64,000 nucleotides of DNA from an uncultured Bacillota bacterium. GTDB lineage: Bacteria > Sysuimicrobiota > Sysuimicrobiia > Sysuimicrobiales > Segetimicrobiaceae. The translations under genes and the position numbers were made by a program. Below the pieces are notes generated by a model that did no database searches, was not told the origin of the DNA, and saw nothing but the letters and a program-made list of their open reading frames with translations. The stretch covers positions 1,184,001-1,248,000 of the forward strand of contig CAWDRG010000009.1 of assembly GCA_963804645.1 (NCBI GenBank). Direction: 5' to 3'. Below are positions 8,977 to 24,788 of this stretch, one piece after another. Each line of letters opens with the position of its first letter. Positions within the stretch are counted from its first letter, which is position 1.

Positions 8977-10752
8977 TTACTCGGTCGACGACGCCGGCGG
9001 GGCGGTGAGGGGCGCGCGGCTTCCCCGATACCAATTGGTGATCGGCAGCCGGCGGTCTCTGCCGAACGCCTTTGGGGTGATCTTGATGCCCGGCGGCGCC
9101 TGGCGCCGCTTGTACTCGCTGCGGTCGACCATCGCGATCACGCGCGCCACCACGGTCGGGTCAAACCCTTCCGCGACGATCTCGTCGGCCGAGCGGTCGT
9201 CTTCGACGTACCGCTCGAGAATCGGGTCGAGCGTCTCGTACGGCGGCAGCGTGTCCTGGTCGGTCTGATGCGCGCGCAGTTCGGCGGTCGGGGCGCGCTC
9301 GATGACGCCCGCCGGGATCAGATCCCGCCCGGCCCGGGCGTTGCGCCAGCGGGCGAGATCGTACACGAGCGTCTTCGGGACGTCCTTGATCACCGCGAAC
9401 CCGCCGGCCATGTCGCCGTACAGCGTCGCGTAGCCGACGCTCATCTCGCTCTTATTGCCGGTCGTCAGCACGAGCCAGCCGAACTTGTTCGAGAGCGCCA
9501 TGAGGAGATTCCCGCGGCTCCGCGCCTGCAGGTTCTCCTCGGTGATGTCGGGCGGCCGGCCGGCGAATGCCGCGCGGAGCGCGGCCTCGTATTCCTTCAC
9601 GACCCCGCCGATCGGCAGCTCGAGCACGCGGATCCCAAGCGCCTCGGCGAGGGCCGCCGCGAACCGGCGGCTGTCCTCGGAGGTAAACTCGGACGGCATC
9701 GTGACGCCGTGGACCGCGTCGGCGCCCAGCGCGTCGACCGCGACGCACGCCACGAGCGACGAGTCGACGCCGCCGCTCAGGCCCACGACGACGCCCCGGA
9801 AGCCGTTCTTCCGGACGTAGTCCCGCGTGCCGAGCACCAGGGCGCGGTACACTTCTTCCACCTCGCCCGGGGGCGCGGGCGGCGGGACGGTCGGCAGCGC
9901 GGGGCGTTCCATCCGTCCGGCCGAGTTCGAGAGCGTGTAGACGGGCGCTCGGATCCCCTCGTCGCGCAGCGCGTCCGTGGTCCGGATCGAGTTGTACCGG
10001 CGGATGCCTCGGATCGCTTCGACGTCGAGATCGGCGACGATGAGCGCCTCTTCGAACGCCGGCCCGCGGGCGACGATGTCGCCGGTCGGGCCGACGATCA
10101 GGCTCAGCCCGTCGAAGACGAGCTCGTCCTGGCCGCCGATCAGATTGTTGTAGACGACCGCCACGGCGTAATCGCGCGCCCGCGTCTTCAGCATCTCCTC
10201 GCGGAGGCGCCACTTGCCGCGCGCGTACGGCGATCCGTTGATGTTGACGGCCACGAGCGCGCCGGCGAGCGACTGCGCCAGCAGCGGGCCGCCGGGCGCC
10301 CAGATGTCCTCGCAGATCGTGACCCCGACCGGCACGCCGTGGATCACGAACACGGGGCTGTCGGTGCCCGGCTGGAAGTACCGCTTCTCGTCGAAGACCC
10401 CGTAGTTCGGCAGGCGCATCTTGCGATACACGCCGGCGATGCGTCCCTCGTGCAGCACGGCCGCCGCGTTGTACAGGTGATCGCCGGAGTCGGCGAACCC
10501 GACGACGGCGGCCGTCGAGGTCGCGTGCGGCGCGATCTCGGCGAGGCACCGGAGGTTGTCGCGGATGAAGTCGGTCTTGATCAGCAGATCTTCGGGAGGA
10601 TAGCCGGCGATCGCGAGTTCCGGGAAGGCGACGACATCCACGCCGAGCGATTGGGCTTCCTCGAGGCGCTCGATGATCTTGCGGGTGTTGCCCTCGAAGT
10701 CCCCGACCGTGGCGTTCATCTGGGCCATCGCGACCCGGAATCGAGGCGTCAT
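8977..10752 (-). CDS. nadE: Glutamine-dependent NAD+ synthetase (nitrilase-fold glutaminase plus synthetase)
   Basis: FPEL, LPNYGVFDEKRYF, ICEDIW catalytic triad motifs; GLSGGVDS, ENLQAR, TGNKSE, PTAEL, SEYKRRQAP. Confidence 0.97.
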   Translation of the reverse strand: MTPRFRVAMAQMNATVGDFEGNTRKIIERLEEAQSLGVDVVAFPELAIAGYPPEDLLIKTDFIRDNLRCLAEIAPHATSTAAVVGFADSGDHLYNAAAVLHEGRIAGVYRKMRLPNYGVFDEKRYFQPGTDSPVFVIHGVPVGVTICEDIWAPGGPLLAQSLAGALVAVNINGSPYARGKWRLREEMLKTRARDYAVAVVYNNLIGGQDELVFDGLSLIVGPTGDIVARGPAFEEALIVADLDVEAIRGIRRYNSIRTTDALRDEGIRAPVYTLSNSAGRMERPALPTVPPPAPPGEVEEVYRALVLGTRDYVRKNGFRGVVVGLSGGVDSSLVACVAVDALGADAVHGVTMPSEFTSEDSRRFAAALAEALGIRVLELPIGGVVKEYEAALRAAFAGRPPDITEENLQARSRGNLLMALSNKFGWLVLTTGNKSEMSVGYATLYGDMAGGFAVIKDVPKTLVYDLARWRNARAGRDLIPAGVIERAPTAELRAHQTDQDTLPPYETLDPILERYVEDDRSADEIVAEGFDPTVVARVIAMVDRSEYKRRQAPPGIKITPKAFGRDRRLPITNWYRGSRAPLTAPPASSTE

Positions 10753-10793
10753 CCTCATTCCTCCTGCGGCGGGTGCGCCACCCGTCGGCCTCC

Positions 10794-10802
10794 ATTATAA
10801 CA
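10794..10802 (-). promoter_or_regulatory. Extended -10 promoter for nadE
   Basis: Minus strand TGTTATAAT about 40 nt upstream of the start. Confidence 0.6.
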
Positions 10803-10904
10803 CCGGTCGATTTCACCGGCCGCGGCGAGGGGTTGTCCGCGTCGGATCCGAACCCCTTGCGTCGGCGCGGCGGTCGGTCGCCGCTGCGCCGACGGGGGGG
10901 CCTC

Positions 10905-12131
10905 ATGGGAAGTCAGTTGTCCGTGAGCGCGGCGGGCGCCGCGGGGTTTCTGGCGGACGTGCAGCACCTGACCGGCGCGCTCGGGGCGGCGCCGGCCCGT
11001 GCGGCCACCCCGGCGGCGGCGCTGCGGGAGATCCGGCACCTGGAGTGCGTGCAGATCGACCCCGTCGCCGTCGTCGAGCGCAACCAGCACCTGGTGCTCG
11101 CCGCGCGGGTGCCGGGCTACGCGCCCGCCCGGCTGGTCGAGCTGCTGCACCGGGGGCGGCTCTTCGAGTACTGGGCCAACGCCATCTGCGCGATTCCGAT
11201 CGAGGATTTTCCGATGTTTGAGGGGACGCGGCGGTGGTTTCAGCGGTACCTCGCGTCCGAGATCGCCGCGCTGCGACCGGTCGTGCGCCGGATCGTGGCG
11301 CAGCTCGAGAAAGAGGGTCCCCGGCCGGCGCGGGCCTTTGTGTCCCCGGAGCGGATCCGCGGCCATTGGGGGGCCGAGGCCAAAGCCACGTCCCACGCGC
11401 TGACGCTTCTGTTTCGCGCGGGCCGGCTCGTGGTCGCCAGGCGGGAGGGCGCGGAGCGGTACTTCGCGCTGCCGGAGCAGGTGATCCCCGCGGACCTGCG
11501 CGCCCGCGCGCGCGCGGTCACGACGGCGGAAGCGAACGACGCCCTGTTCGGGAAGTACGTCCGGGCGTGCCGAGTCTTCGATGCGCGCGATCCGCGGCTC
11601 GGATGGGGCAGGGTTCCCGCCGCCGCCCGGCGGAACGCGCTCGCACGCCGGCTTCGCGCCGGGGAGATCGTGCCGCTCAGGATCGAGGGGGTCGCGCGGC
11701 CGTACTTCGTGCGCGCGCAGGACGTCGACGCGCTCAGGCGCCGCGACGCGGCCGCGCGGGTCGGCGGCGAGCCGGACGAGGGGGTGCGCTTCCTCGCGCC
11801 GCTCGACAACCTGCTCTGGCGGCGTGAACGGCTCAGCGACCTCTTCGGCTTCGAGTATCGGTGGGAAGGATATACGCCGGTCTCGCAGCGCCGGTACGGC
11901 CACTACGCGATGCCGATCTTGAGCGGCGCCCGGCTGATCGGGAGGCTCGATCCGCGGCTCGACCGAGAGCGGGGGCGTCTCGTCGTGCGGCTGCTGCACC
12001 TCGAGCGGGGCGTTGCGCCGACCCGACGCCTGCGCGACCGCTTGGCCGCGGCGCTCGAGCGGTTCGCCGCGTTTCACGGGGCCCGCGACTACGCCGTCGA
12101 GCAGACCGACCCCCCGCGCCTGTGGAGGTAG
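10905..12131 (+). CDS. YcaQ/AlkZ-family (HTH_42) crosslink-repair DNA glycosylase
   Basis: VQIDP (QxD motif), LFEYW, LAPLDNLLW, FGFEYRWEGY, RYGHYAMPIL...IGRLD. Confidence 0.88.
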   Translation: MGSQLSVSAAGAAGFLADVQHLTGALGAAPARAATPAAALREIRHLECVQIDPVAVVERNQHLVLAARVPGYAPARLVELLHRGRLFEYWANAICAIPIEDFPMFEGTRRWFQRYLASEIAALRPVVRRIVAQLEKEGPRPARAFVSPERIRGHWGAEAKATSHALTLLFRAGRLVVARREGAERYFALPEQVIPADLRARARAVTTAEANDALFGKYVRACRVFDARDPRLGWGRVPAAARRNALARRLRAGEIVPLRIEGVARPYFVRAQDVDALRRRDAAARVGGEPDEGVRFLAPLDNLLWRRERLSDLFGFEYRWEGYTPVSQRRYGHYAMPILSGARLIGRLDPRLDRERGRLVVRLLHLERGVAPTRRLRDRLAAALERFAAFHGARDYAVEQTDPPRLWR

Positions 12132-12221: not shown

Positions 12222-13664
12222 TTATACGTCGTAGTACAGGAAGAACTCGTAGGGCACGGGCCGGATGTTGACCTCGTGGACTTCCTTCGTGCGCTTGTAA
12301 TCGATCCACGTGTCGAGCAGGTCGCGCGTGAACACGTCCCCCTCGAGCAGGAACTCGTGGTCGTCCTCGAGCGCCGCGAGCGAGACGTCGAGCGACCCCG
12401 GCACGCTCTTGATCTTGGCGGCCTCATCCGGCGGCAGCTCGTAGATGTTCCGGTCGAGGGGACCGAACCCCGCCTTCGTAGGATCAATCTTGCGCTTGAT
12501 CCCGTCGAGGCCGGCCATCAGCATGGCCGCGAACCCGAGGTACGGGTTGCACGTGGCGTCCGGGCACCGGAACTCCAGCCGCTTGCTGCTGGCCGCCGCG
12601 GGGCCCGAGAAGTACATCGGGATGCGGATCGCGGCGCTCCGGTTGCGCTTGCTGAACGCGATGTTCACCGGGGCCTCGTAGTGGGGGACGAGCCGGCGGT
12701 ACGAGTTCGTCGTGCACGCGCACAGGCCCAGCAGCGCGTTGACGTGGGTCAGCAGCCCGCCGACGTAGTACAGCGCCTCCTGGCTCAGTTCCGCATAGCC
12801 GCCCTCGCTGTAGAAGAGGTTCGCGCCGCCCTTCCACAGACTCTGGTGGACGTGCATGCCGGTTCCATTATCGCCGAACAGCGGCTTCGGCATGAACGTC
12901 GCGGTCAGGCCGTGGCGGCGGGCGACGTTCTTCACGATGTACTTGTAGCTCATCAGCGAGTCGGCCATTCTCGCGAGCGTGTTGTACTTGATGTCGATCT
13001 CGCACTGCCCGGCCGAGGCGACTTCGTGGTGCTGCATCTCCACCTCGATGCCCCAGGCTTCCATCTGCAGCGACATCTCGCTGCGGAGGTCGAGCAGCGT
13101 GTCGGCCGGCGCGACGGGGAAGTACCCCTCCTTCGAGCGGATCCGGTTGCCCATCCCGGGCTGGCCGGTGTTCCAGATCGCCTCGGGCGAGTCGATGCTG
13201 TACCCCATCCGCTGGGGGAGCACGTCGTACTGGACATTGCTGAACACGAAGAACTCGGCCTCGGGACCCCAGTAGCTCGTGTCCGCGATGCCCGTCGTCT
13301 TGAGGTACTCCTCGGCCTTCTGGGCAACGTGGCGCGGATCCCGCGTGTACGGCTTGCCCGTCGTCGGATCGTTGACGTTGCAGATGACCGAGAGCGTCGG
13401 CACCTCGGTGAACGGATCGGGCCGCGCGCTCGCCGGGTCCGGCATCAGGATCATGTCGCTCTCTTCGATCGCCTGGAACCCGCGGATGCTGCTGCCGTCG
13501 AAGCCGATCCCGCGCTTGAACGTCTTTTCGTCGATCTGGCTCGCGGGGATCGTCGCGTGCTGCCAGGTGCCCGGCATGTCCACGAACTTGAAGTCCACCA
13601 TCTTGATGCCGTGGTCCTTAATGTAGGCGACGACTTCCGACGCGCCCATGTCCTTGCCCGCCAT
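12222..13664 (-). CDS. glnA: Glutamine synthetase type I (GSI-beta-like)
   Basis: FDGSSI, HHEVA, ATFMPKP, NGTGMHVHQSL, NSYRRLVP, NRSAAIRIP, RLEFRCPD; NIYEL adenylylation-site Tyr. Confidence 0.98.
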   Translation of the reverse strand: MAGKDMGASEVVAYIKDHGIKMVDFKFVDMPGTWQHATIPASQIDEKTFKRGIGFDGSSIRGFQAIEESDMILMPDPASARPDPFTEVPTLSVICNVNDPTTGKPYTRDPRHVAQKAEEYLKTTGIADTSYWGPEAEFFVFSNVQYDVLPQRMGYSIDSPEAIWNTGQPGMGNRIRSKEGYFPVAPADTLLDLRSEMSLQMEAWGIEVEMQHHEVASAGQCEIDIKYNTLARMADSLMSYKYIVKNVARRHGLTATFMPKPLFGDNGTGMHVHQSLWKGGANLFYSEGGYAELSQEALYYVGGLLTHVNALLGLCACTTNSYRRLVPHYEAPVNIAFSKRNRSAAIRIPMYFSGPAAASSKRLEFRCPDATCNPYLGFAAMLMAGLDGIKRKIDPTKAGFGPLDRNIYELPPDEAAKIKSVPGSLDVSLAALEDDHEFLLEGDVFTRDLLDTWIDYKRTKEVHEVNIRPVPYEFFLYYDV

Positions 13665-13706
13665 GGCCTGCACCTCCGTGTCCCCACGGGACAGAGTCGG
13701 TTCTCG

Positions 13707-13746
13707 AAAACAAAAACGCCTCCCGAGCGAATGCTCGAAAGGCGTC
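13707..13746 (-). terminator. Intrinsic terminator inside the glnA 5' leader (attenuator)
   Basis: Minus strand GACGCCTTTCGAGC-ATTC-GCTCGGGAGGCGTT (14 bp including 3 G-U pairs) followed by TTTGTTTT, between the promoter and the glnA start. Confidence 0.8.
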
Positions 13747-13771
13747 AGGGCCTCCGGTACGTCACGGTACC
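13739..13771 (-). promoter_or_regulatory. Dual-hexaloop hairpin element, putative ANTAR antitermination target
   Basis: GGTAC[CGTGAC]GTACC-G-GAGGC[CCTGAC]GCCTT; the second hairpin overlaps the terminator 5' arm. Confidence 0.7.
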
Positions 13772-13778
13772 TGGCCCG

Positions 13779-13807
13779 GTTATACCATGTGCCCGACGGC
13801 CCGTCAA
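13779..13807 (-). promoter_or_regulatory. sigma70-type promoter of glnA
   Basis: Minus strand TTGACG-17 nt-TATAAC with an extended -10 TG. Confidence 0.8.
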
Positions 13808-13914
13808 CCGGGGCGACGCGCGCGGGCGGGCGGCGCGCGATCCGCGCCGGTGCTTCAACAGATCGAGGGCGCCCCTGGAAGCTGGACGCCCTCGACGCCT
13901 ATGTCGGACGTGAG

Positions 13915-14139
13915 TTACAGCTCGATCGACTCGAGCATGGCATCCAGTTCCCGGCGCAGTTCCGGCGTGTTGTGGTGACCGTGGCTCGCCACCGCGTGGG
14001 TCGCCGCGGCCTCGAGGAGATCCGCGCGCTGCCCCGCCGGGGCCATGATCACCAGCCTGCAGTTCTTTTCACTGGGGAACCGCCCGCAATTTGCCATGAG
14101 CCACTGCCCCTTCGCCAAGCCTGCCTGTTTGAGTTCCAT
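13915..14139 (-). CDS. DUF1059-like small Cys/His protein
   Basis: CGRFPSEKNC...LLEAAATHAVASHGHHNTPEL pattern. Confidence 0.75.
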   Translation of the reverse strand: MELKQAGLAKGQWLMANCGRFPSEKNCRLVIMAPAGQRADLLEAAATHAVASHGHHNTPELRRELDAMLESIEL

Positions 14140-14244
14140 CTCGATCAACTCCCTTGTGTGAATGTCGTCCGCCGCGTGCGGCGGTGTGGTGCCGGACCGG
14201 TGCTGGACAAGGATCCAAAGACGGGGCCCGCTCGACGCAACCCG

Positions 14245-14604
14245 TCAGGTGAGTCGGGCGTACGCGGTCATTCCGGTGACGTCGATGACCACCACGGGAT
14301 CGGCTCCGACGACCCAGGCGTCGTGCCCCGGGGGCAGCACCGACACGTCGCCCGGCACGAACTCCTGTTCCGTTCCGTCGTCCATCCGCACCCGCAGGCG
14401 TCCCGCGACGTGGTACTGGGTGTGCGGCGCTTCGCAGCTCTTCGTCTTCACGATCGGTCGAACCGAATCGGACCACTTCCACCCGGGCTCGAACGTGCCC
14501 CGTCCAAACGTAATGCCGCCGAGCGTGACAAGTTCCAACTTGCCCTTTGGAAACGACCGCGTTTCGTCGGGCGCGTTCAGGGTCTTGTGCTGCATCGGTG
14601 CCAT
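14245..14604 (-). CDS. Cupin-domain protein
   Basis: FEPGWKWS...SCEAPHTQYHVAGRLRVRMDDG...PPGHDAWVVG. Confidence 0.88.
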   Translation of the reverse strand: MAPMQHKTLNAPDETRSFPKGKLELVTLGGITFGRGTFEPGWKWSDSVRPIVKTKSCEAPHTQYHVAGRLRVRMDDGTEQEFVPGDVSVLPPGHDAWVVGADPVVVIDVTGMTAYARLT

Positions 14605-14649
14605 CGTCCACCCCCTTCTGCCATCGGCTGAGCGATTGCTCTCGGCGCT

Positions 14650-14714
14650 AGCGTACCGCGCCCCCGTTGCCGTGGCGTTCCGGAGGCCTTCCAGGGCTGT
14701 TCATGCGGAGTTCA
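14650..14714 (-). promoter_or_regulatory. Five 11-bp-periodic direct repeats plus a -10 box, putative SARP/BTAD activator site
   Basis: Minus strand TGAAC-N6-TGAAC-N6-GGAAG-N6-GGAAC-N6-GCAAC-N10-TACGCT, upstream of the cupin gene. Confidence 0.6.
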
Positions 14715-14752
14715 AATTGGGGGTTCTGCCGGATCCGGCGCCTGGCGGGCCG

Positions 14753-17700
14753 TCAGACCAGATCGGACGCGAGCCGGAGGTTCTCTTCGAGGGTGTCGGT
14801 GCGGCCGCGGAGCCTGGCCGAGGCCCACGCCGCGCCGCCGAGCGCCTCCCGGAGCCGGGTGACGACGCGCTCGTGGTCCGGCTCGTCGACTGGCCAGCGG
14901 GGGGTCCCGATGGCCTCGCGCATCCCGTCCGCGGCGCCGAGCAGGCGCGCCGCCGGCTCGACACTGCCGCCGGCCTCTGCGACGCGCGCCAGGCCCTCCA
15001 AACACTCGATGATTCCACGCTGGTCTCCCAGGGCCCGGCGGCGCTGGAGGCTGTCGCGGATCAGCCGGGCCGCGTCCGGGAGGTCGCCCGCAGCGCACGC
15101 CACCATGCCGAGTTGAAACAACGGCGTGGCGAGGTCCCCGTCGGGATTGCTGTGCTCGAGCAGCCGGAGGCTCTCCTCGAGCAGCTGCTTCGCCCGCGCG
15201 TGCTCGCCGCGGTACCGGGCGAGCGTACCCAGCCCGGCGAGCGATTCCGCGATCCCGCTCGTGTCCTCGAGGGCCCGCTGGACGGGGAGGCTCTCGTCGA
15301 ACAGCGCCGCGGCCCTCGCCATCTCGCCCCGGGCGAGGGCGACGAGCCCGAGGCCGCACTTCCGGTACGCGGCGTCCCATTTCTTCCCGAGCTCGTCCGC
15401 CAGCGCGATCCCCGCCTCCAGCAGGCCGGCGGCCCGCTCGTGCTGGCCCCGCATCAGCGCGATCCGCCCCAGTCTGCCGAGCGACGCCGCCACCGCCGGT
15501 TTGCGGCCGAGCTGACGTTGCAGTCCCAGCGCTTCTTCCATCAGGACGTCCGCGCGTCCGTATTCCGCGTGGTTCGTCGCGAGGATCCCGAGTTGATAGA
15601 GACACTGGGCGATCCCCGCCGTGTCCCCGACGCGGCGGAAGAGCGCCAAGCTCTCCTCGAGCAGGCGGGCGGCTCCCCCGGGATCCCCCTCGTGCAGGGC
15701 CACCGTCGCGATCTCGGCCAGGGCGACCGCGCTCGTCCACGGGTCGGTCACCGACCGGCCCAGCGCCCGGCTTTCCTCGCAGATCGCGACGCCGCGCGCA
15801 TGCTGGCCGCGGTGCCACGTCGCGTGGCCGAGCCAGGCGAGCGACAGCATCAGCGCCTCCCGATCTTGCTGCCCGCGCGCGATCGGGACCGCCTGCTCCA
15901 AGACCGCGCCGGCGTGATCGAAGTCGTCCTGCGCGAAGGCCAGCCGTCCGGCTCCGATCAGCACCCGCATGCGCACGACGGGGTCGGCCCGTTCCGAGCG
16001 CAGCGCGCGCTCGAGCCAGTCGCGTCCCTCGCTGAGGTAGCCGCGCCCGTGCCAATATCCCGAGAGCGCCGCCGTCATCAGCACGCCCGCGTCGTCCGCC
16101 TGTTGGCCGAGCGACCACTCGAGCGCGGCGCGCAGGTTGTCGTGCTCATTCTCGAGCCGGTCCAGCCACACGGCCTGGTCCGGTCCCCTCAACGCCGGCG
16201 CCGCTTCGTCGGCCAGGCGCCCGAAGAACGCGCCGTGGCGTCGGCGCACCGCCACGGCCTCGCCCGACTCGACGAGCTTGGTCTGGATGTACTGCCGCAC
16301 CGTCTCCAGCAGGCGGTAGCGGCCCGGTTCCATCAGCACCATCGACTTGTCCACGAGCTGGGCCAGCAGGTTGAGCACGTCCACCTCGTCGAGCGCGTCG
16401 CCGGCGCCGACGGCCTGCGCCGCGTCCAGCGTGAATCCGCCGGCGAACACCGAGAGATGCCGCAGCAGCGCGCGCTCCGGTTCCGGCAGGAGGTCGTAGC
16501 TCCAGTCCATGGCGGCGCGGAGGGTTTGGTGGCGGGACATGGCCGTCCGCGTGCCCCCGGTCAGCAGCCGGAACCGGTCGTTGAGGCGGGCGGCGATGAC
16601 TTCCACCGGCAGCGCCTTCAGCCGTGCCGCCGCGAGTTCGAGCGCCAGCGGGATCCCGTCGAGGTGCGTGCAGATCGCGGCGACCATCGACGCGTTCTCG
16701 GCCGTCAGCGTGAAGCCCGGCTGGCTCAGCGCCGCCCGCTCAAGGAACAGGCGTACCCCGTCGTACTGCAGCAGGTGCTCCGCGCGCCCGGACTGACGCG
16801 CGTCGGGAACCGACAGCGATGAGACCCGATACACGGCTTCGCCCGCGACGCCGAGCACCTCTCGGCTCGTCGCCAGAATGCGGAGATCGGGACAGCGGCG
16901 GAGCAGGGCCTCGGCAAACTGCACGCATCCGCTCGCGACATGCTCGCAGTTGTCCAGCAGCAAGAGCGCGCGCTTGGTGAGCAGATAGTCGCTCAGGGCG
17001 GTGACGAGCGACCGCGTCGTCTCCTCTCGAAGATCGAGGACGGAGGCGACGGCCTGGGGGATCAGCGTCGCGTCGGGCAGGACGGAGAGGTCGACCAGCC
17101 AGACTCCGTCCGGGAACTCCGGCTGCGCGCCGGCCGCCACTTCGAGCGCGAGGCGGGTCTTGCCGACGCCGCCGGCGCCGACGAGCGTCAACTGCCGGCT
17201 GGCCGCGAGGCGCTCCCGGACCTCCGCGAGCTCGCGCGTCCGACCGACGAAGCTTGTGAGGGCGAGCGGGAGGTTGGTGCGTCCGCGCGCGGGCTGGTCC
17301 GCGGGCGGTCGCGCCGGCGCGGGCGGCGGAGGAGCGGCGGGGGGCACCGTGCCGGCGACGACGTCCTCGTAGAGGCGCTGGCTCGCGGCGTCGGGCGCGG
17401 CGTCGAACTCGCGGCTGAGCGCCTCGCGCAGGATCTGATACTGGCGGAGCGCATGCAGGCGCTGGCCCGTGGCCGCGTACAGACGCATCAGGCCGCGGTG
17501 CGCCTCCTCCCGGCCCGCGTCGGCCACGAGGAGTAGCTGGAAGGTCTCGATCGCCTGCCCGTACGCCCGCTCCGCCTCATACAGCGCCGCCAGATCGTAC
17601 AGCAGCGCGAGATACTCCTGCTGCAGCGCGTCCCGCCGGCCGACGGACCACTCCTCGTACCGGTCCTCGGGAAGCACTTCACCGCCGTACAGGCCGAGGG

Positions 17701-18118
17701 CCGATTGATACGCGTCGATCCGCTTTGTCGTCCTTGCGCGGATGACGGCCTGCTCGAACGCGTCGGCGTCGATCCACACCGCATCGCGCGCCAGCATGAT
17801 GACGTCGTCTTGGAGCGACAGTGTGCGTGGGGCCGGCGCGGGCCCGTCGGCTTCGAGCACACGTCTGGCGATGTGCATCGCCTTGCGGAGGTTATTCGCC
17901 GCCGCGGGGGGCTCGAGGTCGGGCCACAGCCACTCGGTGACCTGCTCCCGGTGGAGGCGGTGGCCCGGGGTGAGCGCCAGCAACTTGACGAGGGTTCTCG
18001 ACTTGCGAAGGGGCCACGCGGCGGAAGGAATCTCCCGGGGTCCGGACGCCACCCGGAACCCGCCGAGAATCCAGATGCTCAGTTGGCTGCCCGGCTCCTC
18101 GAGGTGATCACCCGGCAT
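14753..18118 (-). CDS. SARP/BTAD transcriptional regulator with STAND ATPase and TPR repeats (AfsR-like)
   Basis: N-terminal wHTH-BTAD (LLALTPGHRLHREQ, EEAHRGLMRLY); NLPLALTSFVGR, GAGGVGKT, LDNCEH, LDGIPLALELAA; C-terminal TPRs. Confidence 0.92.
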   Translation of the reverse strand: MPGDHLEEPGSQLSIWILGGFRVASGPREIPSAAWPLRKSRTLVKLLALTPGHRLHREQVTEWLWPDLEPPAAANNLRKAMHIARRVLEADGPAPAPRTLSLQDDVIMLARDAVWIDADAFEQAVIRARTTKRIDAYQSALGLYGGEVLPEDRYEEWSVGRRDALQQEYLALLYDLAALYEAERAYGQAIETFQLLLVADAGREEAHRGLMRLYAATGQRLHALRQYQILREALSREFDAAPDAASQRLYEDVVAGTVPPAAPPPPAPARPPADQPARGRTNLPLALTSFVGRTRELAEVRERLAASRQLTLVGAGGVGKTRLALEVAAGAQPEFPDGVWLVDLSVLPDATLIPQAVASVLDLREETTRSLVTALSDYLLTKRALLLLDNCEHVASGCVQFAEALLRRCPDLRILATSREVLGVAGEAVYRVSSLSVPDARQSGRAEHLLQYDGVRLFLERAALSQPGFTLTAENASMVAAICTHLDGIPLALELAAARLKALPVEVIAARLNDRFRLLTGGTRTAMSRHQTLRAAMDWSYDLLPEPERALLRHLSVFAGGFTLDAAQAVGAGDALDEVDVLNLLAQLVDKSMVLMEPGRYRLLETVRQYIQTKLVESGEAVAVRRRHGAFFGRLADEAAPALRGPDQAVWLDRLENEHDNLRAALEWSLGQQADDAGVLMTAALSGYWHGRGYLSEGRDWLERALRSERADPVVRMRVLIGAGRLAFAQDDFDHAGAVLEQAVPIARGQQDREALMLSLAWLGHATWHRGQHARGVAICEESRALGRSVTDPWTSAVALAEIATVALHEGDPGGAARLLEESLALFRRVGDTAGIAQCLYQLGILATNHAEYGRADVLMEEALGLQRQLGRKPAVAASLGRLGRIALMRGQHERAAGLLEAGIALADELGKKWDAAYRKCGLGLVALARGEMARAAALFDESLPVQRALEDTSGIAESLAGLGTLARYRGEHARAKQLLEESLRLLEHSNPDGDLATPLFQLGMVACAAGDLPDAARLIRDSLQRRRALGDQRGIIECLEGLARVAEAGGSVEPAARLLGAADGMREAIGTPRWPVDEPDHERVVTRLREALGGAAWASARLRGRTDTLEENLRLASDLV

Positions 18119-18291
18119 GCCCGCACGCTCCTTTGCCCGTCGGCTTTCGAGGCATGCGTCGCGGATGCCTCCACGGCCGCGGGCGGGCGCCGGGGGTTCC
18201 CGGGGCGCTTCGGCAGGCGCCGGAGCGCGCGGTCCGAAAGTCATTCAGCGGCGCGGCCGGCGGTCGCGACGATATCGCGGAGGGATGGCCG

Positions 18292-18846
18292 ATGCTCGCG
18301 TACGTGTTTTGGCACTATCCGGATGCGGGGCTGGACGCTGGACGGTACGAGGCGCACCTTGCTGCGTTCCATCGCGCGCTCGCCGCGGCGTCGCCCGATG
18401 GATTTCTCGGATCCGCGGCGTACCGGATCGACGGGGCTCCCTGGCTCCCGGGCAGCGATGGATACGAGGACTGGTACGAACTGGCCGACTGGACGGCGCT
18501 CGGCGTGCTGAACGCGGCCGCGGTGTCCGCGTCCACGCGCGGCGATCACGATGCCGTGGCGGGCCTGGCGGACGGCGGAGCGGGTGGCGTCTATCAATCG
18601 CTGCGTTCGGCCGCTCGCGGCGCGTCAGACGCCGGGCTGTGGCTCACCAAGCCGAGAGGCACGCCGTATTCCGAGTTCATGGGGGCGTTGGAGGCCCTGC
18701 CAGCGGTCTTCGCACTGTGGCAGCGGCAGATGGTGTTGGGGCCGACCGCGGAGTACTTCGTCGCCGGCCCTGAGGCGATGCTCGAGCACGCGATCTTCCC
18801 CGGCGGCTGGAAGCCCCGGTTGATCCGCCGGCATCGTGTGTTCTGA
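18292..18846 (+). CDS. Hypothetical protein
   Basis: ATG after GGAGGG; protein-like composition (LAYVFWH...YEDWYEL...LWQRQMVLGP). Confidence 0.7.
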   Translation: MLAYVFWHYPDAGLDAGRYEAHLAAFHRALAAASPDGFLGSAAYRIDGAPWLPGSDGYEDWYELADWTALGVLNAAAVSASTRGDHDAVAGLADGGAGGVYQSLRSAARGASDAGLWLTKPRGTPYSEFMGALEALPAVFALWQRQMVLGPTAEYFVAGPEAMLEHAIFPGGWKPRLIRRHRVF

Positions 18847-18946
18847 ACTGGGAGCCGGCACGGAGCGGGCGCGGCGTGCTCACCGGATGGCTCGTCACAG
18901 GCGCACGCGCCACCCGCGGCACGACAGGCCGTGCTGATAGGCTGGG

Positions 18947-20689
18947 CTAGCGCTCGCGGCCGGCGCGCCGGCGCGCGGGGCGCTTGGCGCGCGGCTTCGA
19001 CGCGGCGGTCGACCGCTTGGCCGCCGCTTTCTTGGTCCGAGCCGGTTTCTTGGCTTTGGCCGCGGCGCGCTTCGGCCGCGGAGGGGGCGGCGCGGCCTGC
19101 GGGCCGCCGACCGGCACCAACTCGAACTGCGCGGTCGGCGCCGGCACCCCGGCGCCCTTCACCGTGCCCGGCAGAATCCTAAATACCGGACAGAGGAAGA
19201 CCTCGATCCGGCCGCCGCCCGGCGCAAACAGCGCCGGCAGGTGGAGCGATCGAAGCCCGACGAGCGTCAGGGGGCCGGTCGGCGGCGTGCTGAGCCACCG
19301 GCGCGCGGTCTCGTAGGCCGGCGTCCCGGGGACGGCGACCGCGGTGATGCGGGTCTTCCCGGCCGCGTCGCCGAACGCGAACAGGAACGGACGTCCGTCG
19401 ACGAACTGGCTCCGGCCCCCGTAGAACTGGCCGGTCATGTACACGTAGGCGGTTTCGACCACCGGCGCGTGCCGGAACGTCATCGTGCCGCCCGTGAACG
19501 CGACGCGCGTGGACGGCTGGAAGTCCGGAAACGGCATCGGGTGGACGGCGTCGATCTGCGCCCACTCCGCCTCGCCGGGCGCGTCGATCGAGACCGGCGG
19601 GAACGTCAGGCCGCGCTCGGTCACGATGGTGCGCACGGGGTGGATCTCGAGCAGATGCGGGATCACGGGGTGTCCGACGGACGCGTGGTCGGGCAGCATC
19701 CGCAGCAGGCCCGTGACCGTGACGCGCTGCTGCGTCCCAATCATCTCGTCGAGCAGCCGCGCGTACTGGCTGTGCCCGGTGCCGCCGGCCTCGAGCGCCC
19801 CCGGCCGCACCGCGTTCTGGATGACGCAGGCGATCGTGTCGCGCGTCGCGCCGTCGGCCGGGGCGGGCGACAGCCCGAACGCCACGCCCAACCCGTACTC
19901 GCCTTCGCCGGTGCGCGCCGTCACGTACCCTTCCGCGGTCACGTCGATGCCCGGCGAGAACCGGAGGTACGCGAGCGGCTCGGCGCCCGAGACGACGAAG
20001 TCCTGCTGGTCGCCCGAGCTCGGGAGGATGCTCACCGCGCTCAGCACCCGCAGGAGGTCCGCGGGCGTCCGCACCTCGATCCGGCCCGCCGGGCGCGCCG
20101 GCGTGTGCTGGCGCATCTCGTCCGACACCAGGATCGCGCGGGCGATCTCCCGCATGGGGGTGCGCGTGTTGCGGCTCTGCCGCTGGATGCGGAGGAACGC
20201 TTCCTGCTCGTCGATCCCCTCGCGCTGCATCAGGATGCCTTTCGCGCGGTCGACCAGCTTGCGCGTCTCCAGGGTCTCCTTGAGGTTGCCGACCTCCTGC
20301 TGGAGCGCGCGCAGCTCCGCGAAGCGCGCCATCGCCACCTCGATCACGGGGACCAGCTCGGCCTCGCGCACCGGCTTGACGAGGTAGGCCAGGACCCCGG
20401 CCTCTTGGGCCCGCTGGACGAGGTCGCGCTCGCTCCACGCCGTCAGGAGGATGATCGGCCGCGGCTGCCGCGTCATGATCGTTGAGGCGGCCGAGATCCC
20501 GTCGAGCCCCGGCATCTTGATGTCGAGGAAGATCAGCTCCGGGTTGAGCTTGGCGGCGAGCGCCACCGCTTCCTCACCGTCGCTCGCTTCCCCGACCACC
20601 GTGTAGTCGTGCTCCTCCAGCATCGTGCGGAGGCCCATGCGGATGACCGGCTCGTCGTCGGCGATGAGGATGCGCATCGCGTCGGTCAT
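18947..20689 (-). CDS. REC-ANTAR response regulator (PdtaR/EutV-like) with a long C-terminal extension of unknown function
   Basis: IADDEP, LDIKMPG, YLVKP receiver motifs; ANTAR LETRKLVDRAKGILMQREGIDEQEAFLRIQRQSRNTRTPMREIA; ~380 extra aa. Confidence 0.92.
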   Translation of the reverse strand: MTDAMRILIADDEPVIRMGLRTMLEEHDYTVVGEASDGEEAVALAAKLNPELIFLDIKMPGLDGISAASTIMTRQPRPIILLTAWSERDLVQRAQEAGVLAYLVKPVREAELVPVIEVAMARFAELRALQQEVGNLKETLETRKLVDRAKGILMQREGIDEQEAFLRIQRQSRNTRTPMREIARAILVSDEMRQHTPARPAGRIEVRTPADLLRVLSAVSILPSSGDQQDFVVSGAEPLAYLRFSPGIDVTAEGYVTARTGEGEYGLGVAFGLSPAPADGATRDTIACVIQNAVRPGALEAGGTGHSQYARLLDEMIGTQQRVTVTGLLRMLPDHASVGHPVIPHLLEIHPVRTIVTERGLTFPPVSIDAPGEAEWAQIDAVHPMPFPDFQPSTRVAFTGGTMTFRHAPVVETAYVYMTGQFYGGRSQFVDGRPFLFAFGDAAGKTRITAVAVPGTPAYETARRWLSTPPTGPLTLVGLRSLHLPALFAPGGGRIEVFLCPVFRILPGTVKGAGVPAPTAQFELVPVGGPQAAPPPPRPKRAAAKAKKPARTKKAAAKRSTAASKPRAKRPARRRAGRER

Positions 20690-20690
20690 C

Positions 20691-22380
20691 CTACGATCCC
20701 TCCGGGCGCGGCATCGTGATCACGGCGTGCGTGCCCCCCGGGCCGCCGAACGTAATTTGGCCCTTGAGGTCGCTGCCGACGAGCGTGTGCACGATCTGCA
20801 GGCCGAGGCCGGCGGACCGGTCCGGCACGAATCCCTGCGGCAGGCCCACGCCGTCGTCCTGGACCTCGACGCGCAGCGTATCGCGCCCCGCGGCAAGCGT
20901 GATCATCACGGTCCCGCCGCTGCGGCCCTCGAACGCGTGCTCCAGCGCGTTCTGCAGCAGCTCGTTCACGACGAGCGCAAGCGAGGTGGCCTGCTGGCTC
21001 GGCAGGCTCAGGTCGTCGCCGCTCACCTTGATCTCGAGCGTGAGGCCCGGCCGGGCCATCGTCTGCCGCACCGTCTGCGCGACGCGCTCGAGCATCTCGT
21101 GGACGGCGACCTGCCGCAGGCCGTCGGCGGCGAGAATCTCGTGGACGCCCGCGATGCTCAGGATCCGGTTGATCGTCTCGGTGAGGACCTCGCGGCCCGA
21201 GACTTCGCGGCCGTCGCGCAGCTGCAGGCGCAGCAGCATCGCGATCATCTGGAGGTTGTTCTTCACCCGGTGGTGCATCTCGCGCACCATCGCCGACTTA
21301 ACCACCAGGCTCGCATTCTCGATCGCGAGCGCGGTTTGGTTCGCGAGCGTCTGCAGCATGCTGATCTCGGACGGCGTGAACGTGTGCCGCCGCGCGGTGT
21401 AGCAGTTGACGACGCCCAGCGTGTGGTCCCGCACGCGCAGCGGCACGGACAGGAGCGACCGCACGGGCGACGGTTCGGGCAGCTCGTTCGTGCGGAAGCG
21501 CGGATCGTCCGCGAGATCGTGGCTGACGGCCGGCTGCCCGGTCGCCGCCGCCTCCCCGGGAACGCCCTCACCGACGCGCAGCGTCCGCCGGGGCCGCGGC
21601 CCGGGGGCCTCGGGGTGGGAGGCGGCGAGCACGAGCTCCTCGCCCTCGAGCAGCATCAGCGTGCACAGCGGCGCCTGCAGCACGCGCGCGGCCATCTCCA
21701 CGAGGAGGCGGAGGATCTGCTCGAGATAGAGCGGAGACGTCAGCGTCTCGCTCGCCTCGGCGAGCGTGCGCAGCTCGAGGATCTGGCGCCGCATGCTGTC
21801 GTGGAGGCGCGCCTTCTCGAGCGTGCCGCTCGCGAGATCCGCGATGATGCTCAGCAGCTCGATCTCGTCGTCGCCCCAGGCGTGCGCGCCGGTCGTCTGG
21901 ACGTTGATCGCGCCGAGCGTCCGGCCCTCCACGGTGAGCGGGACCGCGAGCAGCGATTGGAACAGTGACTCGTGGGTCTCCGGCAGGAGCTTGAACCGCG
22001 GGTCCTGCACCGCGTTGGTGGACGCGACCGGCTCCCCGTGCTGCGCCGCCCATCCGGTCAGGCCCTCGCCGAACTTGAGGCGTGCCGCGCCGACCGCGTC
22101 GGCGGCGAGCCCCGTCGTCGCTTTGAGGACCAGGTACTCGCGCGAGGCGTCCAGCAGATAGATCGAGCAGCTGTCGACGGGCATCACTTCCGCGGTCGTC
22201 CGGGTGATCAGGGTGAGCGTGGTGTCGAGGTCGAACGTGGCGCCGATCGCGCGGCTGATCTCCCGCAGCGCCGAGATCTCCGCGGTCTTGCGGGCGAGCT
22301 CCCGCGCCGTATCGTCGGTGTGGCTCTGCTCGGGCGTGATCGCCCCTCGGCGCGGCACTACGGCCTCCCGCGGCCTCGGA

Positions 22381-22394
<14 letters not shown>
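20691..22394 (-). CDS. Soluble GAF-GAF sensor histidine kinase, HisKA_2 class (PdtaS/EutW-like)
   Basis: Two GAF domains; REMHHRVKNNLQ H-box, NELLQNALEHAF, DDGVG, GLGLQIV; no TM segment; exact start uncertain. Confidence 0.92.
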
Positions 22395-24747
<2,353 letters not shown>

Positions 24748-24788
24748 CACGGAGCCTCCTGGACGACGAGTATGGCGCGGCGTTCTTC

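Follow-up and report, generated by a model that had tools for sequence, protein, structure and literature searches.

A PtsP-type GAF kinase and an ANTAR regulator predicted to control glutamine synthetase through a single C-loop hairpin in Sysuimicrobiales

What adjusts glutamine synthetase to the nitrogen supply in a bacterium whose genome, 97% complete, yielded no PII, AmtB, sigma54, true sigma54 (NtrC-type) activators or GlnE? The question is raised by a stretch of 64,000 nucleotides from an uncultured Bacillota bacterium of the order Sysuimicrobiales (assembly GCA_963804645.1, contig CAWDRG010000009.1, positions 1,184,001 to 1,248,000), hereafter the window, in whose positions coordinates are given and in which all main features lie on the minus strand. 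Here the open reading frame (ORF) of a GAF-GAF-HisKA_2 kinase (20691-22394) ends one base before that of a REC-ANTAR regulator (18947-20689), and the pair lies about 5 kb upstream of glnA and its leader (Table 1). The initial annotation, whose account of these reading frames, domains and distances proved accurate, proposed that the kinase senses glutamine and 2-oxoglutarate through its first GAF domain (GAF1) and thereby sets readthrough of an attenuator at glnA. The wiring from kinase through ANTAR to the leaders of nitrogen genes is very probable on the comparative sequence evidence, and for this wiring together with direct glutamine sensing by GAF1 we estimate a probability of roughly 0.45.

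Table 1. Positions of the components of the predicted circuit within the window
Feature	Position	Strand	Basis
glnA, type I glutamine synthetase (long type), predicted target	12222..13664	(-)	passes type I cut-off
Intrinsic terminator with U-tract	13707..13746	(-)	
P2 hairpin, core RGGC-CNNGAH-GCCY, overlapping the 5' arm of the terminator	13740..13753	(-)	
P1 hairpin, 5-bp stem and six-base loop with G at position 4 (G4), family-specific, also a DNA palindrome	13756..13771	(-)	
Predicted sigma70-type promoter (-35 13807-13802, 17 nt, -10 13784-13779)	13779..13807	(-)	read by eye
REC-ANTAR regulator with family-specific C-terminal extension	18947..20689	(-)	domain profiles
Soluble GAF-GAF-HisKA_2-HATPase_c kinase	20691..22358 (longest ORF from 22394)	(-)	domain profiles
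GAF1, PtsP-like	21792..22277	(-)	signature C76 Y79 L90 L96 L106 A128 F134 E142 Q166 E177

The leader has the architecture expected of an antitermination target. The predicted glnA promoter is conserved in relatives and was not listed by a consensus promoter scan; the coding sequence more likely begins at the ATG at 13664, with a ribosome-binding site at 13677-13671. The terminator stem (13746-13715) comprises 14 pairs, and its 5' arm is built from the loop and 3' strand of P2. The leader folds more stably than any of 200 shuffled sequences (z -4.7), and the terminator fold (-36.1) exceeds the two-hairpin fold (-25.0) in stability by 11 kcal/mol, so that termination would be the default. One exact RNA contig covers the terminator and the start of glnA and is silent on regulation. 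In the host-order sample of 61 genomes, the core GGC-CNNGAY-GCC is invariant in 25 glnA leaders, an alignment chosen by the presence of the core itself; raw upstream sequences show it in 26 of 30, the remaining four having an intervening gene. Across the 25 leaders covariation supports the terminator (95% paired, with 29 two-sided changes, against at most 67% in slid controls), and a fourth P2 pair is kept in 52 of 58 sites from two phyla, with 20 two-sided changes. Removal of two likely coding sites from the 80 collected left 78, all with C at loop position 1 (the pattern permitted C or T), unlike the canonical A. When any G4 hexaloop over a terminator was sought in 65 mostly Chloroflexota loci, the top three classes (12, 5 and 3 hits) were all C-loop.

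The proteins carry residues expected for phosphotransfer and RNA contact. Domain profiles matched two GAF domains, HisKA_2 and HATPase_c in the kinase and reported no membrane sensor domain; its start is more likely the GTG at 22358 than 22394, because an identical database protein has 555 residues. The predicted phosphorylated histidine, His375 in the numbering of the 567-residue ORF, is invariant in 53 orthologs; the ATP boxes are present, as are the receiver Asp, Thr and Lys (D56, T83, K105) of the regulator. The REC domain of the latter spans residues 7-116 (also including D11 and D12) and its ANTAR domain residues 135-187 (PF03861, 76 bits), with the RNA-contact residues R143, K144, K150, E161, F165, N174 and R176 in place. 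Arg173 sits where EutV of Enterococcus faecalis has Met172, the "plug". This position is Arg in all 83 distinct ANTAR segments adjoining the GAF kinase, and also in one genome (G194) with the motif beside a different kinase, whereas 9 of 12 ANTARs that adjoin different Chloroflexota kinases have Met there. The Arg plug and the C-loop motif travel together, the counter-case being a fragmented assembly (G200) with Met and the motif; Arg at the plug may thus be what reads the C-loop.

Beyond its ANTAR domain the regulator continues for ~390 residues, an extension that had gone unmentioned in the initial annotation. It includes a conserved tail of ~335 residues (18947-20104, minus strand), 65-80% identical within the host family and absent from other families, which ends in a Lys/Ala-rich stretch. 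The tail received no assignment from Pfam, NCBIfam or Atlas; its one weak match (E 0.1), to the MCM N-domain, points to a possible OB-type fold.

Co-occurrence is part of the case for the wiring. The full kinase is present in 54 of the 61 host-order genomes (three copies are cut by contig ends) and ANTAR in 56. A motif model run over these genomes (R1) matches 52 of the 54 kinase-bearing ones, and the motif is visible on inspection in the other two. Two R1 matches (G024, G031) were discarded as not being the motif, and among the seven genomes without the kinase the true motif occurs only in G005, 86% complete. In one genus (g10; four genomes, 95-97% complete), kinase, ANTAR, motif and long-type glnA were all not found; it keeps a short-type glutamine synthetase (GS), with no leader in 3 of its 4 genomes inspected. 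Several genomes have kinase, regulator and glnA immediately side by side, and within 6 kb of 69 kinase loci lie REC-ANTAR (61), glnA (18), gltB (16) and amtB (8). Among relatives in the host order and Anaerolineae, the motif stands upstream of amtB, amtB-glnK, glnK, gltB, GSIII, amino-acid permease and extra REC-ANTAR genes.

The closest relatives of the kinase are titled ANGP1 and HR32, which we take to be Sysuimicrobiota (CSP1-3); further orthologs belong to Chloroflexota, mostly Anaerolineae. In a sample of 81 Anaerolineae genomes, the true motif was found in 14 of 18 with the GAF kinase and 2 of 63 without it (Fisher 2e-10, a value overstated by an uneven search, in which kinase-positive genomes were examined harder, and by non-independence of kin). 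These calls come from a noisy pattern search that matched 45 genomes, terminators being judged by eye; matches in G207 and G213 were discarded as coding, and G254 remained doubtful. A second model (R2), insensitive, gave four matches over 121 Chloroflexota-sample genomes, including both with true orthologs; G105 showed no motif, and G116 has a motif without a clear downstream gene. Among 1.8 billion representatives, multi-GAF giants dominated the profile matches and served only as background. The initial annotation had named the leader motif in genomes lacking this pair as a refutation, and this partly applies: the kinase was not found in two motif-bearing Anaerolineae (G194, G200). In both the motif adjoins another HisKA_2/REC-ANTAR pair, so that it is tied more tightly to the output module than to GAF1. 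With synteny, joint loss and regulon content in agreement, the predicted wiring is well supported.

Within the source genome, R1 finds three further sites, before ArsN1-family acetyltransferase, LysE-like and pyridoxal-phosphate (PLP)-decarboxylase-like genes; the first lies above the R1 cut-off, and the other two were read by eye. The first is a single-hairpin motif (C9:1050386-1050451, minus strand; L269) downstream of a GS-like gene, and its pairing with an ArsN1-family gene recurs in G003 and G005. ArsN1-type acetyltransferases inactivate GS inhibitors, and a motif at such a gene would fit a low-glutamine signal. Dual hairpins precede the PLP-decarboxylase-like gene (C2:189961-190023, plus strand), and a variant motif with a weak U-tract precedes the LysE-like gene (C9:987518-987589, plus strand). 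Elsewhere, tandem hairpin/terminator units precede genes for AmtB, a permease or an additional ANTAR protein (L062, L064, L100, L105, L110, L227), and several genomes of the family have short divergent ANTAR genes under the motif (L101-L103), one set being followed by a Ser/Thr kinase.

What the kinase senses turns on GAF1, in which the sequence motifs quoted in the initial annotation were found. Its best solved-structure relatives by sequence are 3e0y, a GAF domain whose function is not known, and the PtsP GAF domains 3trc and 3ci6 (E 1e-21 to 1e-26). GAF1 aligns without gaps to the GAF domain of Escherichia coli PtsP (28% identity, E 2e-22, against 8e-9 for GAF2), and its model superposes on 3trc at 1.8 Å with a TM score of 0.90 of the target. 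Fifteen of 57 GAF1-conserved positions are common to all nine PtsP domains. A ten-residue signature, picked from positions shared by GAF1 and PtsP, is present at 8/10 or better in 53 of 53 GAF1 and 9 of 9 PtsP domains, in 0 of 51 GAF2 and 0 of 1252 background domains, and in 5 of 15 taken from other GAF proteins of Chloroflexota. GAF1 thus appears closer to the PtsP GAF than generic GAF domains are, in sequence and modelled fold, as had been suggested; a branch joining GAF1, PtsP and those Chloroflexota domains has a Shimodaira-Hasegawa-like approximate likelihood ratio test (SH-aLRT) value of 90. GAF_PdtaS (PF12282) matched a different kinase and gave no match in this one. Glutamine inhibits PtsP autophosphorylation via the GAF domain, according to the published account (PMC4848567); the PDB matches included no ligand-bound structure of a PtsP-type GAF, and L83 of Caulobacter PtsP could not be mapped with certainty onto GAF1. 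Given the wiring, glutamine is somewhat favoured as the GAF1 ligand, and nothing in this analysis favours 2-oxoglutarate, the second ligand originally proposed. Direct sensing is plausible because the nitrogen regulators named at the outset were not found; gltB is present.

The strongest competitor keeps the same wiring and lets GAF1 respond to another signal (2-oxoglutarate, an amino acid other than glutamine, or a partner protein), or has GAF2 or both domains integrate signals. It draws on the 13 conserved GAF1 positions that differ from every PtsP domain, on a NifA profile that also scores (E 3e-23), on the NifA GAF being a reported 2-oxoglutarate binder (PMC12998190), and on GAF1-type domains in PucR-type proteins and other kinases whose signal is not known. 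The closest solved structures, with NifA reaching only E 0.01 among them, and the signature common to GAF1 and PtsP argue the other way, and we regard this alternative as a tentative one, behind glutamine.

Several observations weigh against the combined reading of wiring and glutamine sensing. The regulator carries Arg at the position where the M172A substitution in EutV abolishes RNA binding (PMC8934654); the three core pairs of P2 are invariant, and the covariation score over the 58 sites is equalled by slid controls. Weak R1 matches were only partly inspected, two of 63 kinase-negative Anaerolineae (G194 and G200) carry the motif, and no motif was seen in 4 of 18 kinase-positive ones. As to the sensor, the 13 GAF1-conserved positions that differ in all nine PtsP domains include T113, N164 and T167; only the background counts test the signature; PtsP profile scores (90-123 bits) place PtsP no closer than GAF2 (median 97); and the branch uniting GAF1 with PtsP is unstarred in a quick tree.

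The attenuator had been described as a dual hairpin, which is true of the window and of 15 of 18 host-family leaders (6.1 expected), but P1 is not above chance elsewhere: 12 of 36 other sites of the order have it (12.7 expected), and 8 of 24 Chloroflexota sites (5.1 expected). The conserved unit is a single hairpin whose loop begins with C, the second hairpin being found only in the host family. EutV targets have A1 loops and two hairpins (PMC3369931); in the EutV-RNA structure, as described, A1 makes no protein contact and a dimer is unable to engage the two loops of a single RNA simultaneously (PMC8934654), so neither C1 nor a single hairpin rules out ANTAR binding. P1 might instead act as a DNA operator at +1, adding control of initiation to ANTAR control at P2. 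Its GTA-N8-TAC sequence is NtcA/Crp-like, its nearly invariant stem begins at the predicted +1, it is absent outside the host family, and Crp-family genes exist. All 15 P1 loops, however, keep G4 without a symmetric C, like the P2 loop, and the genome has only five copies of the full palindrome, which do not suggest a regulon; an operator is unlikely.

Two ANTAR-bearing proteins are encoded in the source genome, and the second belongs to another HisKA_2/REC-ANTAR pair (C4:18882-20647, plus strand) amid cytochrome and mreB genes. Its kinase has an RsbRD_N-like input, a family match just below the cut-off made in an ortholog. This pair could read the glnA leader or share the task: its ANTAR is intact, and in G194 and G200 the motif adjoins non-GAF kinases. 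However, 16 R1-matched genomes from other genera of the family yielded no second kinase, in many genomes the only ANTAR is that next to the GAF kinase, and in the seven second-pair loci inspected the motif preceded no nitrogen gene; in the source genome, too, no motif was found near the second ANTAR. Its residues Gln172 and Asn175 also depart from the Arg/Arg of motif-linked ANTARs, and a role for this pair at glnA is improbable. Least probable is a protein-independent leader (a small riboswitch or plain attenuating terminator) with the pair a mere neighbour, since the core, although invariant across two phyla, has a conserved part of only ~12 nt, an Rfam scan of the window gave no match, and the motif is lost together with ANTAR and kinase.

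Wiring and direct glutamine sensing combined would work as follows. At high glutamine, GAF1 would be occupied, the kinase off and the regulator inactive, and transcripts would stop at 13715. At low glutamine, phosphate would pass from His375 of the kinase to Asp56 of the regulator, whose active form would bind the C1/G4 hairpin P2 (in the host family also P1), block the terminator and allow glnA to be read through when nitrogen is short. The extra motif-controlled ANTAR genes of relatives would give feedback.

The initial annotation cast this circuit as an RNA-level alternative to NtrBC, GlnR or TnrA. That picture fits this genome, in which sigma54 and NtrC-type activators were not found, but the idea itself is in print (NitR, GnfK/GnfR, Ramesh 2012). 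As to GlnR/TnrA, none of six MerR-type matches lies beside glnA and none was classed against a GlnR model, OmpR-type GlnR not being searched. Glutamine-dependent nadE, noted as lying just beyond glnA, is indeed nearby (8977-10758), but an AlkZ-like gene on the opposite strand intervenes (10773-12131), so nadE is not on the glnA transcript, and its co-regulation with glnA was rejected for this window. In some relatives nadE follows the kinase/regulator pair, and in G200 the motif precedes a nadE.

Around the pair, a membrane pyrophosphatase gene (22381-24750, minus strand) abuts the kinase throughout the host family, and a DUF192 gene precedes it in most other families of the order. SARP/NB-ARC/TPR regulator, cupin-like and DUF1059 genes (13915-18244, minus strand) separate the pair from glnA, an insert missing in several relatives. 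Other Chloroflexota-sample genomes (L207-L213, L218) encode GAF-GAF-HisKA_2 relatives of the kinase that bear an additional N-terminal domain and have neither the motif nor an adjacent ANTAR match. In a further one (L221:3588-5675, plus strand) a protein with a PtsP-type GAF, a GGDEF-like domain and a PucR helix-turn-helix is encoded directly upstream of glnA, possibly a DNA-level counterpart.

More broadly, and tentatively, an Arg-plug ANTAR subfamily may read a single C1/G4 hexaloop in a code orthogonal to that of co-resident Met-plug/A1 systems and, driven by a glutamine-sensing PtsP-type GAF, serve as master nitrogen regulator without PII, NtrBC, sigma54 or GlnE; this GAF type might then be a portable glutamine sensor of kinases, PucR-type factors and phosphotransferase system (PTS) enzyme I. 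The analysis gives an explanation of nitrogen control that can be tested, both in Anaerolineae and in a bacterial lineage that has received little study; it provides a natural test of ANTAR target discrimination (Met/A1 versus Arg/C1, one hairpin versus two) and names residues with which to probe the glutamine-binding site of PtsP-type GAFs.

Published work already places GS genes under ANTAR control (NitR; Ramesh 2012; GnfK/GnfR); the Ramesh 2012 supplement has 25 "glutamine synthetase" rows and no Chloroflexi names in its 7 text files. NitR of Clostridium saccharobutylicum likewise antiterminates genes of GS and glutamate synthase under nitrogen limitation, but the review's account describes no sensor kinase (PMC6316151), whereas here a dedicated GAF kinase is linked. 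GnfR of Geobacter sulfurreducens is likewise a kinase-activated REC-ANTAR protein; it antiterminates nitrogen genes, and its site has a GGC/GCC stem; unlike here, GnfK is described as without apparent sensor domain and under an NtrBC-like sigma54 cascade, and the loop starts with A (PMC2995071). EutW/EutV and the eut leaders of E. faecalis also combine a HisKA_2-type kinase, a REC-ANTAR protein and a G4 hexaloop overlapping a terminator (PMC3369931, PMC8934654), and equivalents of EutV R142, K143, K149, E160 and R175 are kept in the window regulator; here the sensor is a tandem GAF, the loop base is C1, Arg replaces Met172, the second hairpin is dispensable in most lineages, and the targets are ammonium-assimilation genes. 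The best structural relative of the regulator is 1s8n (E 9e-56), from the mycobacterial PdtaS/PdtaR system, which likewise has a soluble HisKA_2 kinase, with a GAF_PdtaS sensor and Met plug there in place of the PtsP-type GAF and Arg here. PtsP (EI-Ntr) shares with GAF1 the ten-residue signature and the 3trc fold, and glutamine inhibits its autophosphorylation (PMC4848567), but its GAF is fused to PTS enzyme I and differs at the 13 GAF1-conserved positions. Literature searches on ANTAR in Chloroflexi, or on ANTAR with GAF kinase, glutamine or oxoglutarate, returned no paper on this pair within a coverage outside which subscription journals lie, and the sensor and the altered RNA-recognition code appear unstudied. 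What is new here is the PtsP-type sensor on a kinase, the single C-loop target, the Arg plug and the family-specific tail of ~335 residues.

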